DNA of 64,000 bases from Eledone cirrhosa. Lineage: Eukaryota. The stretch's first letter is position 1; every line of letters begins with the position of its first letter. Where the stretch lies: the NCBI GenBank assembly GCA_964016885.1, contig OZ024743.1, positions 156,178,001-156,242,000 on the forward strand. Direction: 5' to 3'. A program made the position numbers and the translations under genes. Under the pieces are notes generated by a model that saw only the letters and a program-made list of their open reading frames with translations, made no database searches and had not been told where the DNA came from. This document shows positions 6,012 to 60,970 of the stretch, piece after piece.

Positions 6012-6077
6012 TATATTATTGTATATATTTCAAGGGCAACCAAGGCAAGTTTTGGTGCGCTTTCATCAGATAAAATA
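6012..6077 (-). ncRNA. type-I HHR in the PLE-1 5' pseudo-LTR (U16.1 mutated to C)
   Basis: TATTTTAT CTGATGA AAGCGCACC..GGTTGCCCTT GAAA TATATA CA ATAATATA. Confidence 0.75.
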
Positions 6078-7110
6078 CACATTCTTTTCATAAATATTGA
6101 CATACCCGCATAAAGATAACCTTACCGGTTGAGGTTCGCTGGATAGTGGAACAAATATTTTATTGAGGGTGATTCAAAGTTATGAGTAAGTATGCAGATG
6201 AGTGTCAGAAAAATTGAAACAACAACGGTTTATTTAAATTAAACTGTTGGAAGAAAGTAGTGAAAGGGAGAGAGAAAAGGGAGCGAGAGAAAATATTGAA
6301 AGGGAAAGAGAAAGAATAGTGAAAGGGAGAGAGAGAAAAAGAGAAAGAGAAAGAGAGAAGAAGAAAGAAAAAGGGTGAAAAAAGGGAGAAAGAAAGAGAG
6401 ACAAGATTATGCAGAGTGATAGTGAAGAAAATTTAAGGAAGAGCGAGCGAAGAAATTAGCTTTTCAAGGGATGGAAATATTAAACCTAATTCATATAGAT
6501 ATGATAAATAAGAGTTAGATGTAATTGAAGAGTGCTGTCTGTCCTAGTGCTGTTAAAGATTTTTTTTTATTTTCCCTTCGTCTTTAACAGCACTCTTCAA
6601 TTACATCTAACTCTTATTTATCATATCCATATGAATTAATATAAATTTATCAATATAAATATACCTATCAATTTAATTAATTTATTTTCTTTTTATAGAT
6701 GTAAATTCCCTATATTTTAAATAAAATTGATATTTTTCACTAACACATTTATCGTAAAATGTTATTCTCCTTAGATATTTACATTAGCATTATTCTTTTA
6801 TAACATCAATTCTTCGTGTACCTTTTACCGACTTGACCTATTTTCATCCCTAAAATAATCTTTTCATTCATCATACTCTTTCCATTCAAAACTGAAATCT
6901 GCTTTCCTCTACCCCTAAATTAAAGTTCTATTACTACTATTCTACCATGTTGACCACTTACTATCTTTCTATTGGTCAATTCAAAACCTGTTCCCAAACA
7001 GAACTATTATATTAAATCTTTGTTGTTTTTTTTCAATAAACAAATAACATTATTTCTGAAGACAGCATATATATGTGTAGGTATGTATATTCCCTCTGAT
7101 AGTTTGTAAA

Positions 7111-7458
7111 TTATAAAATTAACTTACTTACAAATCACTTTCCACTGATTAACCTCGATGTCAAGTGATTGATTCGTTTTGAATTTTCCACCGACGCAGT
7201 AGGGAGTGATTTTCTCAATGGCTAGGAATTCAGTCCGCACTTTGCTATATTCTATCCACTGAATTATTTTTGTATAAGTTTTCCAGAGTCCACGCTTTGC
7301 CTGGAAACTTAACTGAGAATAGACTTCCCTAACGACGAAATGATTCTCTATATCTTCTTCGGAAAATATATTTATTCCATTTCAGAAACTAATTAGTTGG
7401 GAGAGAAATTTTAGTAAGTAAGTTAATTTTATAATTTTCTTATTTTACGTCTCTCATA
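7111..7458 (+). mobile_element. partial copy of HHR tandem-repeat family A
   Basis: homologous to 16690-17020; short inverted 5' piece; ends in (TA)n. Confidence 0.8.
7324..7403 (+). ncRNA. family A HHR, G5 mutated to A
   Basis: CTTCC CTAACGA CGAAATG..CATTTCA GAAA CTAATTAG TT GGGAG. Confidence 0.7.
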
Positions 7459-10050
7459 TATATATATATATATATATATATATATATATATATATATATA
7501 CATGCATGTTCGTATGTAAGTGTATGGATGTATGGATGGATGGATATAAACGTACATTGTAGATATCGTAGACACCTTAATTTTATTGAACACTTTCATG
7601 AAACCTGTTTAAAACGAATCCCAAACATCAAATGGCAACATATGTATATATATATATATATATATATATATATATATATATATATATATATATATATATA
7701 TATATATAACACTTTTTTTCTCTTTTTCTTTTGCAAGATTATAGATATGAAATCGTGTGTTGAAACAGAGTATTGTTATACATTGAGAAGTTTCATTCCA
7801 CCAATACCGTTAGTGCGTTTCAAATTTGTGCGCTGTTAGTTAAGTACGTAATACATTATTTTCTTAAATAAGTTATCGGGTAATTGATTATTTGTCCTAG
7901 TTAACTTTCAAGGCTATTTCGGCCCCATCATGTCACCTCAATGACAACTATCTGCCTTCTGTCTATCTCATTTTTGGTGGGTCGTATATTTATGTGTTGC
8001 TACTTCCAAAGTGTATGAGCGTCTGTGGATGTATGCATGTTTTTATGTTGTCAACGTTTTTATGCGCATATATGTGTGTCACACAGTTATACCGTTCCTG
8101 TATTCTATCGGGATGTGCATTGATGTCTGTTTCTCCACTCTTAGATTCATTGCCTCGGGGCTTTACATGATAATCAGTCGCTAGGTTGTACGGTTGTTGT
8201 GATTTCATTCATGCTTCGTATTGAAATTATTATCTGCGATGATTGCCTCATCAGTTTGGGCAACACATCTGTTCTGTGTGTAGATACAAATCTTATTTCA
8301 ATGATTTCTCTAGTGACCCATCATTTTAAAGTGTTGCGTTTTGTTAAAGCACTGACTATTATTTTCTCGTGTTTGAGCCCTCATCAGTGACCTTTCGTAG
8401 TTTCTCCTTTACACCAAGGCGTTTCTCCTATGGCCATATTTCTACATTGTCATACTGTGCACTATATTCAATAGATTACTTTTGTAGTTTTTCTTTTCTT
8501 TTTTCGTAATTTCTGTTGACTTACATTGCAGACTCTAACATTTCTCTCGGTAAAGGGGTTTCCTTAAAATGGTAAGTTTTGCTGATTGTGTATTTTGGGG
8601 GATTTCCTAGGTTTCTTAATTAATCTATATTTCAATTCATCTAAAGTCCTTCTAAATCCATAAGTTAGTTCGTTCGGGGGTAGCATCGACGAACATGACC
8701 CTCTCATTCAATTCTTTTTTTTTGTCAGCCCACTGTCATCCTCTTTATCCTGCTCCATGATATCCTTCCATTCTCATCATTTTCAATGATAGTTTTCAGA
8801 TTTCCGCCGGCGACTATAAAGTCAAAACTTCTCTATTTCCTTGTATCATTAAACGTGCATGTAGGGGATGAAATATTGCAGGTGTCTTTCTAATTCCTTA
8901 GGATCGTTCATTATGGACACTTTTTTCATCATATTACAATGGTTGTTACATTTTTAACTTTCTGAAACTGTTGACCTCAGGTGCATCAGACACGTGGCTC
9001 TCAATTGCGAGTGTGAGTGAGCGCACACCATGACGCTCAATAAGTAATCTATAGTTACTCTAAATATCATTTTGGCCTCACTTTATATTATATAAAATTG
9101 TAAACGAGAACAGGTATACAATCTATCGATTTATATAGATTCAGCATGAATGAAGAGATGCATTTTAAAACGAAATTTCAATTAGAACGAGTGAAAATAT
9201 TAAAAGATCTTACGCCGTTTACAAGATAGTTCATTCGTCAAATTGCAAAGTATTATGCAATACAATAACATGAAAAAATAAAGAGACAAAATAACGAGCA
9301 ATAAACATAGAAATAAACATACACAACAATGCGTGATGAAGCACGTTAGATTAGGAAGTAGTGTAGGGGATAGGTTTGAGGCCCATGACTAAATTCGGAA
9401 AAGGAAATGTATATTTATTAATGAGTTAAATGTCCTTTACTTAATTAATATTCGCACTCCATATCGAATCTTCCATCGAGTATTACTCTGTATTGTGATA
9501 TTCCCAATATTCCCGTGTTAGGCACTTCATATATATATTATGATCGCCTATGCTTTTTTGTGCTACTGTCGTTGCTTGTATAAATACTATTTACCATATA
9601 TGTTAGAATGTTTTATTTTTCTACGCTATCTAAAAGAAAAGTAATTCCCTTCCGAAATATATTTCAGTGAACATGAATTAGAAACAATCCATTGATAGCT
9701 TAACCTAATATATAGACGTTATTTTTATCTGTGCTATTTGGCCTATGTATCTAATGTAATACAAAATAATAGTATGTCTGGCAAATTGCCTAATATAACT
9801 GAACACTATTTTAATGATAAATTACCAATGTCTCTGAGAACGTTTTACCATTATCGACCCGGCCTAGCAAACACATATCCCTTCAGCTATGTTATATCAC
9901 ATTAAAAAGAAGAAATAATTATTGAGTATACATTGTAATCTTAAACTGACATAGAATTGTAAAGTTATCATCGATTAGAAGGGATTCGAGCTAGATGACA
10001 GCAATACAGCAATAAAAAAGGAACAGTTCTCTACTTTATTTTATAGACTA

Positions 10051-59951: not shown

Positions 59952-60133
59952 ACACACACACACACACACACACACACACACACACACACACACACACACA
60001 CACACACACACACACACATATACACACACACACACACACACACACACACACATATATATATATATATATATATATATACATATATATATATATATATATA
60101 TATATATATATATATATACATACACACACACAG
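59952..60133. repeat. (CA)n(TA)n microsatellite
   Basis: direct reading. Confidence 0.95.
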
Positions 60134-60828
60134 ACACCACACTCAAACATAAACATACTCACCTGCACAAACTAATAACCGCATAAAATCACCCAAACGC
60201 CCAAACACATACACATGTACACACATGCACGCACAAAAGTACATGAATTATTCACAGACACACACGTACAAGCTCACACACAAATCTTTATGCATACGAA
60301 GACAGATATACACAAATATTCCCAGATACACTCGTGAATATATACACACAAATTCATTGACAAACATACATAAAAAAGCTTCATAAAACTCTCCCTAAAA
60401 CACTGTGATACCCACAGATAAACAACTCAATCAACGATACACAATTGCACGGAGCAGCCCCAACACCTGGACTACCACCCCAGCCATTTCCATCCCGCAC
60501 ACCCAACTACTCGTCCATGCCCTCTACAGCCCTCTTAAATATCGTTCGCAGCCTCAGACTTCTGTTGTTGCAACTATCTTCCTCTTTCTCTCTAAACCCT
60601 CATTTTTGCATCGCTGTGTATTCTCTTGTGTTTCTCTTCTTGAACCACACGCACATACACACACACACACACACAAGCATACATACACACGCACACACTC
60701 TCACATACACACATACATACACACACATACATATATATATATATATATATATATATATATATATAGTGGGGGACACTGGAAGGTAATATCCGTAGTGGTT
60801 AAGCACTCAGTCCAAGGGACGAGTTAGG

Positions 60829-60970
60829 TAGAAGTGGTTACACAACATTTAGTTCACCATACCGAGAACAATTGTTTTACATTAGCAGATCTTCAGCTCG
60901 GGATGAAGATCCTCTAAGGTGAAACAATTGTTCTCGGTATGGTGAAGTAATTGTTGTGTAACCACTTCTA
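60829..60970. mobile_element. foldback of two pLTR-like ends, each with a damaged HHR (60862-60901 minus; 60903-60937 plus)
   Basis: minus CCGAG CTGAAGA..AAAA CAATTG TT CTCGG; plus ATGAAGA TCCT-CTA-AGGT GAAA CAATTG TT CTCGG. Confidence 0.75.

Follow-up and report, generated by a model that had tools for sequence, protein, structure and literature searches.

The 64,000-nt stretch of the Eledone cirrhosa genome considered here (assembly GCA_964016885.1, contig OZ024743.1, positions 156,178,001 to 156,242,000 of the forward strand; hereafter the window) is AT-rich, with many (TA)n and (CA)n tracts, and carries Penelope-like elements, short tandem arrays and numerous copies of a hammerhead ribozyme motif. 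Our analysis revealed 28 hammerhead-derived motifs with family support, distributed over 10 families: nine copies of family B, four each of A and T-AU, two each of P1b, P2, S53 and S60, and single copies of P1a, T-GC and S43. The boxes, the three helices and the cleavage dinucleotide are found in these motifs far above chance and within a Penelope-like repeat architecture, and tens of thousands of genomic copies of the same families exist. They are genuine motifs of an established type, and palindromic helix III dimers in Penelope-like elements and retrozymes have already been published. We consider it highly probable that they are type I hammerheads located in the pseudo-long terminal repeats (pseudo-LTRs) of Penelope-like elements and in short tandem, retrozyme-like derivatives, and that the self-complementary helix III likely pairs two copies into a double hammerhead before cutting.

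The motifs were delimited by comparing candidates with the window by BLAST and aligning their copies, while doubtful ones were looked up genome-wide. The pattern CTGATGA followed by GAAA occurs nine times in the window against 1.09 expected, and none of 100 shuffles reached nine. The full descriptor, which combines the boxes, helices I and II and A15.1...U16.1 with a non-G N17, gave five matches against none in 30 Markov shuffles; with one core mismatch allowed there were 10 against 0.53. The arrangement of helices I and II and of A15.1...U16.1 with a non-G N17 is that of type I hammerheads, and helix I is complete (7/7) in the young B and T-GC copies. Of the 28 motifs, 17 have both boxes intact, i.e., CUGANGA (or the U3-A8 form UUGANAA) and then GAAA, and 13 of these also retain the helices and the cleavage site; these 13 are sequence-competent by our parse, which asks for both boxes, U16.1, an N17 other than G, three or more base pairs in helix II and a usable helix I. 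The remaining 15 are altered in a box, the site or a helix, and non-intact motifs were recognized via homology to intact copies elsewhere in the genome. About half of the 28 copies are worn out, and most copies in the window are dead relics. A preliminary description of this DNA had counted about 30 hammerheads, a figure that stands as a number of motifs and lies far above the shuffled controls, although only the 13 mentioned are sequence-competent and none reaches the Rfam gathering score. Beyond the 28 motifs there are one fragment (36971-37001) and two box-only matches (8363-8387 and 35402-35441). The latter have both boxes without helices I and II and no relatives in the sampled families described below; we rejected them as chance matches, and their number is that expected by chance (1.09). 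Seeds from the 27 clusters found elsewhere in the genome recovered no further family in the window.

The abundance of these motifs is not confined to the window. In a genome sample of 120 random 10-kb stretches (1.2 Mb), drawn from the first 150 Mb of the four largest contigs, 99 intact-core motifs were found, corresponding to 82.5 per Mb (bootstrap interval 60-107.5), while the Markov control for the same descriptor gave 0.67 per 600 kb. Extrapolation from this sample suggests a genome total of roughly 250,000 hammerhead motifs. The window, with 10 motifs by the sample descriptor, lies at about twice the sample mean. An exact B 30-mer occurs 10,739 times in the 3.0-Gb genome against none for its control. 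Exact 19-mers of T-AU and T-GC provide independent counts of the same order, at 26,813 (control 5) and 26,160 (control 1), respectively. The very large genome-wide ribozyme load anticipated in the preliminary description is thus confirmed. Clustering of the 99 sample motifs by helices I and II gave 27 clusters, and 18 of the 99 have an opposite-strand partner within 400 bp.

All nine helix III words named in the preliminary description were found in the window, the first of them, ACTAGT, being helix III of all nine B copies. Four of these copies are intact, namely 17977-18021 (minus strand; helix I 7/7, a tandem array unit), 18524-18568 and 19016-19060 (both minus; each with a weak Rfam Hammerhead_HH9 match of 18.5 bits, the gathering score being 52) and 19464-19508 (plus; 22.6 bits), which forms the inverted arm of the array. 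Two further copies with core CTGACGA and a 5/7 helix I are sequence-competent, one at 14037-14081 (minus), which belongs to an older subfamily, and one at 14759-14803 (plus). The copy at 14469-14513 (minus) is impaired, with a helix II of 2 bp and a helix I of 4/7, and those at 17490-17534 (minus; core CTAAAGA, N17 = G) and 42472-42516 (minus; core CTGACAA) are dead; all three retain ACTAGT. Between 17.1 and 19.5 kb family B forms five minus-strand tandem units about 490-550 bp apart plus the inverted arm, and B arrays elsewhere in the genome have a spacing of 470-550 bp. Such short tandem repeats with one type I hammerhead each are the hallmark of animal non-LTR retrozymes (Cervera and de la Pena, 2020; PMC7229834), with which family B also shares the low GC content, a helix III too weak for a monomer and a helix II that opens with a U.U mismatch, as in the axolotl HHR_Amex2. 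It differs from the retrozymes described there in its unit spacing (about 490-550 bp with internal (TA)n, against 170-400 nt). The words 'Octopus' and 'cephalopod' are absent from the main text of that paper. An origin of retrozymes from Penelope-like elements has been proposed (Li, Clavereau and Pollet, 2026, bioRxiv 10.64898/2026.07.22.740005).

Family A is represented by a dead copy at 7322-7405 (plus; core CTAACGA), two sequence-competent copies at 15848-15931 (minus; long helix II with 7 bp at its base) and 16884-16967 (plus), and a copy with intact core and broken palindrome (ACTAATTATT) at 16366-16449 (minus). Helix III of the first three is ACTAATTAGT, at 7388, 15856-15865 and 16950-16959. 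Elsewhere in the genome (L005:1133-2647) family A forms a tandem array in which AATAATTAGT and ACTAATTAGT alternate with spacings of 519, 476 and 519; this higher-order repeat points to amplification at the DNA level. The single P1a copy (15277-15335, plus) carries ATATATAT as helix III, at 15320, and is dead here (core CTGAAAA; CTGAAGA in copies elsewhere). It lies in the block from 13.6 to 19.9 kb in which B, P1a and A are mixed. The T-GC copy at 30392-30460 (plus) is intact, with a 7/7 helix I and helix III ATGCGCAT at 30445. Two dead T-AU copies stand head-to-head at 41913-41973 (plus; core CTGATCA) and 41737-41800 (minus; core ATGATGA), both with ATATGTAT, at 41958 on the plus and 41755 on the minus strand, respectively. 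The S43 copy (43247-43294, minus) is sequence-competent; its helix III, ACATTAGTGT at 43267, recurs in a copy of the genome sample (L061), and the fragment mentioned above (36971-37001, minus) is an S43 remnant consisting only of helix III and the 3' strand of helix I, without boxes.

Concerning the carrier elements, the clearest is a Penelope-like element at 1727-6507 (minus), in which direct repeats (1727-2272 and 5955-6507, about 555 bp, 90.6% identical) flank ORFs (open reading frames) at 5548-3411. Each repeat contains a T-AU hammerhead: that in the upstream pseudo-LTR (6015-6076, minus) has an intact core and a decayed helix III/I side, and that in the downstream one (1757-1842, minus) has lost the GAAA box. 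A Pfam search of 13 ORF pieces gave a sub-threshold GIY-YIG match in an ORF of this element (E 0.00057; 20.6 bits, the cut-off being 22.6) and no RVT_1 match on the ORF pieces of the window. Relatives with 36-44% identity were found for another of its ORFs. The Atlas clusters nearest to one of them carry HTH_animal, GIY-YIG and RVT_1, with all scores below 0.9 and hence as a lead only; Pfam scans of three of the relatives gave nothing, though PF26215 is listed for them in the collection. This ORF region also shows 52% identity over 82 residues with an ORF beside P2.

The P1b and P2 copies lie directly 3' of GIY-YIG-like ORFs, and each has an inverted partner. The P1b copy at 48967-49015 (minus; core CTGAAGA, helix I 4 bp, helix III ATAACT) is paired with a dead one at 51040-51088 (plus; core CTGAAAA) within the inverted repeats 48813-49567/51242-50489, and the P2 copy at 20002-20100 (minus), 3' of ORFs 21786-20740, with that at 22601-22700 (plus) within 19997-20564/22706-22141. 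Pseudo-LTRs, inverted 5'-truncated partners, short tails and (TA)n targets have been described for Penelope-like elements (PMC8557442), and the window shows pseudo-LTRs with inverted partners, hammerheads within the pseudo-LTRs and insertion into (TA)n. One of the closest known systems is that of Cervera and de la Pena (2014; PMC4209133), who described a type I topology, a short or absent helix III stem, a palindromic 15.2-16.2 region or loop 3, hammerheads in both pseudo-LTRs flanking the element, opposite-strand pairs 100-700 bp apart, many families per genome, U3-A8 covariation and an unpaired base at the start of helix II, all of which recur here. The long helix II inserts (in A, T-GC and P2) and the 8-10-nt palindromes set several of the present families apart from that description.

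Family P2 deserves separate consideration, as it has no CUGANGA box. In 39 aligned genomic copies we found CCCCC, then TTGANAA (with N variable), a helix II with a long loop and GAAA, followed by a 5-bp helix III with loop TTGAGCTCT, GTC and finally GGGG. In the window the core is TTGAGAA in the first copy, with helix I CCCCC/GGGG and a stable 5-bp helix III whose loop contains GAGCUC, and TTGAAAA in its partner; GAGCTC lies at 20016-20021 and 22681-22686. Owing to the missing CUGANGA box, a permuted hammerhead of type SGC (Eckert et al., 2023; PMC10085705) was considered and ruled out: the order is box 1, helix II, GAAA, helix III and site, i.e., the ordinary type I order with a U3-A8 core, a covariation also reported for Penelope-element hammerheads (PMC4209133). 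The predicted lowest-energy fold of the P2 monomer (22601-22700) is a three-way hammerhead junction. P2 (also at loci L122-L150) yielded 3,673 first-look candidates genome-wide, and its copies end about 20 nt past the predicted cleavage site, flush with (TA)n at many loci, as does the element at 22601-22700. The U3-A8 core is present in P2 and S53 of the window and in two families of the random genome sample. When the descriptor was relaxed to allow a helix III of as many as 22 nt and the U3-A8 core, the background became too high for counting (37 matches against 14 for the U3-A8 core), and this version served only to pick families. At one locus of the sample (L007) a tandem satellite (period about 996 bp) occupies the entire 10 kb and gave rise to 10 false matches of the relaxed descriptor.

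The S53 and S60 copies of the window are decayed. S53 (262 first-look candidates) is found at 53897-53943 (minus; core TTGATAA, helix III ACGATCGT at 53915, base of helix I mismatched here) and at 54238-54284 (plus; TTGATAC, helix III ATGATCAT). In S60 (1,415 first-look candidates) two inverted cores stand about 7 nt apart, head-to-head, with the junction at the 5' edge of helix I (60860-60939; also L166-L178); at two loci (L170/L171) the center is a perfect palindrome. In the window, one arm (60896-60939, plus) has core ATGAAGA and helix III ACAATTGT at 60924, and the other (60860-60903, minus) has core CTGAAGA with AAAA in place of GAAA.

An alternative explanation is that the palindrome mainly joins two element RNAs for reverse transcription or two-ended insertion, ribozyme activation being secondary. 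The dimer initiation site of retroviruses offers a comparison for such a role. P2 folds as a monomeric hammerhead, yet GAGCUC is present in loop 3 in nearly all 39 aligned copies; another hairpin-type family carries CUAG in its loop, and head-to-head insertions are common, the S60 cores being an example. However, the chance probability of a 4-nt palindrome in an 8-nt loop is about 3 in 10 and that of a 6-nt palindrome in a 9-nt loop about 6 in 100. Moreover, it is on the 5' side of the motifs, and not at the palindrome, that head-to-head copies are joined, and a palindromic loop 3 has already been described as a feature of hammerhead dimers (PMC4209133). We thus consider this explanation very unlikely.

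A short palindromic helix III marks hammerheads that act as dimers (PMC4209133; PMC7229834), and the statement of the preliminary description that the palindrome serves dimer action agrees with these reports, with the loop geometry of B and with the predicted T-GC dimer. If closed as a hairpin, the B helix III ACUAGU would be left with a loop of 2 nt, and AUGCGCAU would have no more than 2 bp capped by a tetraloop, so that monomers cannot hold helix III. For the T-GC copy at 30.4 kb the predicted lowest-energy dimer is a double hammerhead with 24 intermolecular pairs, eight in each of two helices I and eight in helix III. In addition, ATATGTAT, ACATTAGTGT and ACATGTGT, near-palindromes in the DNA, are fully self-complementary as RNA through G.U pairs. 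At the center of the T-AU palindrome, among the first 100 listed of 26,813 copies, TG was found 62 times, TA 34, CG three times and CA once; the form that keeps the wobble is common and the one that gives C.A almost absent. The two center positions are adjacent and can therefore pair only with a second molecule. This bias supports a strand-specific constraint at the RNA level, apparently acting on pairing between RNAs rather than within one. CpG decay after insertion was considered as a source of ATATGTAT and ATATATAT; it is weakened by the sister palindrome ATGCGCAT, in which the CpG is preserved in all but one of the first 100 copies listed (of 26,160), so that the variants would be of lineage-level origin and not the product of post-insertion decay. 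The retention of this CpG indicates either a young family or slow CpG decay in the genome.

The same data bear on the view that the words are palindromes at the DNA level, such as sites for an endonuclease or for hairpin formation, or else coincidences, and that they play no part in RNA. In most families they are indeed perfect DNA palindromes, and most window copies are dead. Nevertheless, AUAUGUAU, ACAUUAGUGU and ACAUGUGU are self-complementary only as RNA, with G.U on the sense strand, and a strand-symmetric role in DNA would not give the excess of TG over CA described above. Furthermore, the palindrome always lies between GAA and the cleavage dinucleotide of the full descriptor, which is absent from shuffles. 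A purely DNA-level or fortuitous origin therefore appears extremely unlikely.

According to the explanation that we favor, i.e., dimer-type hammerheads in Penelope-like and retrozyme-like repeats, two copies within a multimeric or two-LTR transcript would pair through their helices III, and helix I would join the 5' strand contributed by one copy to the 3' strand contributed by its partner. Both copies would thus take part in every active site, and cutting would release unit-length RNA. The palindromes may differ because separate lineages drift under the single constraint of self-complementarity, and partner specificity would then be a by-product, shared with helix I. A double hammerhead in which two adjacent domains share an extended helix III, each site being built from both, was reportedly described for newt satellite 2 and avocado sunblotch viroid by Forster et al. 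in 1988. Those are single families, whereas here there are at least 10 families in a single window and 27 clusters in 1.2 Mb.

The preliminary description had also held that each family has its own palindrome and that the palindromes act as a self-recognition barcode. The first claim fails for P1b, whose helix III (AUAACU in the window, AGAACU elsewhere) is not self-complementary in either form, and for P2, in which helix III is a stable hairpin, as in two other families; T-AU and P1a, in turn, use the same or cross-pairing AU words. We found no correspondence of one palindrome per family and one family per palindrome. AUAUAUAU (ATATATAT in the DNA) is common to two unrelated families among the 27 sample clusters, with seven copies in each. 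One cluster uses three cross-pairing words (ATATGTAT in nine copies, ATATATAT in seven and ATACGTAT in one), and another has a 4-bp hairpin in eight copies and ACGCGT in three. Three forms of family A with very different helix II, belonging to two clusters, all retain ACTAATTAGT (ACUAAUUAGU in the RNA).

The barcode itself would imply that the palindromes were selected to let none but same-family partners activate a ribozyme, sparing co-resident families from cross-cutting in read-through transcripts. For most pairs of equal length, in-register duplex energies do favor the homodimer, by about 4 to 10 kcal/mol. This does not apply to the AU-rich trio AUAUAUAU, AUAUGUAU and AUACGUAU, which cross-pairs as well as or better than it self-pairs, or to the pair ACCGAUCGGU/ACUGUACGGU. 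Since helix I is also formed between both molecules of a double hammerhead, it provides a second address. Among the 120 pairs of 16 family types, 108 are excluded by both helices, two by helix I only, nine by helix III only, including T-GC versus T-AU, and one by neither; helix I thus excludes 110 of the 120 pairs and helix III 117. T-GC and T-AU, which share helix I and differ in the palindrome, with about 26,000 copies each, make the strongest case for a barcode. Interleaving of families on one strand, exemplified by the 13.6-19.9 kb block, makes cross-talk possible in principle. However, palindrome-compatible pairs among 14 independent families number one, and random palindromes matched in length and composition would give 0.83 (the probability of none is 0.42 under this null), so that there are no fewer than by chance; partners in a tandem array are guaranteed by position. 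The specificity does not exceed what drift would produce, and helix I largely duplicates it. With palindromes that are neither family-unique nor universal, a helix I that discriminates nearly as well and an orthogonality equal to random, the barcode is not upheld, and we regard a selected code of this kind as unlikely.

Several observations weigh against our interpretation. The orthogonality of the palindromes is physically real, helix III being incompatible in 117 of the 120 pairs, and different families occur on the same strand within 3 kb in 24 pairs; for 17 of the 99 sample motifs, the 10-kb stretch holds another member of their family on the same strand. Some selection for orthogonality is therefore conceivable. 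The predicted lowest-energy dimers of B and S43 are not canonical double hammerheads, and the TG/CA asymmetry of T-AU could partly be a founder effect, as the copies are not independent. No sequencing run listed for 17958-19090 is recorded as RNA. Finally, no hammerhead was detected in the window at the Rfam gathering score, and 15 of 17 candidate stretches searched singly gave no hammerhead match at E up to 10. The two that matched are B copies (22.6 and 18.5 bits), aligning with Hammerhead_HH9 (RF02275, clan CL00010) in the boxes and the layout of helices I and II, with scores far from the gathering score of 52; no other window family matched at E up to 10. A whole-window E-value search had no hammerhead among the best 150 of 302 matches, a list dominated by microsatellite look-alikes of microRNA models. 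The Rfam models expect a hairpin helix III.

A few other features of the window may be mentioned. A near-perfect 100-nt inverted repeat at 47477-47576 (arms of about 48 bp) scores about 80 bits with the mir-3913 model on either strand (gathering score 100); rather than a microRNA gene, it probably represents a foldback or miniature transposon. Within the GC-richer block from 20 to 28 kb, an ORF piece at 26232-26675 (minus) has a Pif1 helicase 2B domain (PF21530, E 6.8e-14) and looks like a remnant of a Helitron-type helicase. Tandem repeats without relation to hammerheads are located at 25183-25377 (37 bp, 5.4 copies) and 11160-11394 (130 bp, 1.8 copies).

It is conceivable, though in our opinion improbable, that helix I and the helix III palindrome constitute a two-part address that keeps double-hammerhead assembly within a lineage, and that where helix I is shared (AUGCGCAU versus AUAUGUAU/AUAUAUAU) the palindrome alone discriminates, having diverged under selection for orthogonality. 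Such an address would operate in a genome with about a quarter of a million hammerheads, whose families number 25 or more and all use the same (TA)n sites as targets. The two big lineages that share helix I and differ only in the palindrome are the one clean natural pair for testing the choice of partner by helix III. With about 80 intact-core motifs per Mb by extrapolation, and 27 clusters in 1.2 Mb, the genome of E. cirrhosa represents an unusually rich natural library of dimer-type hammerheads.

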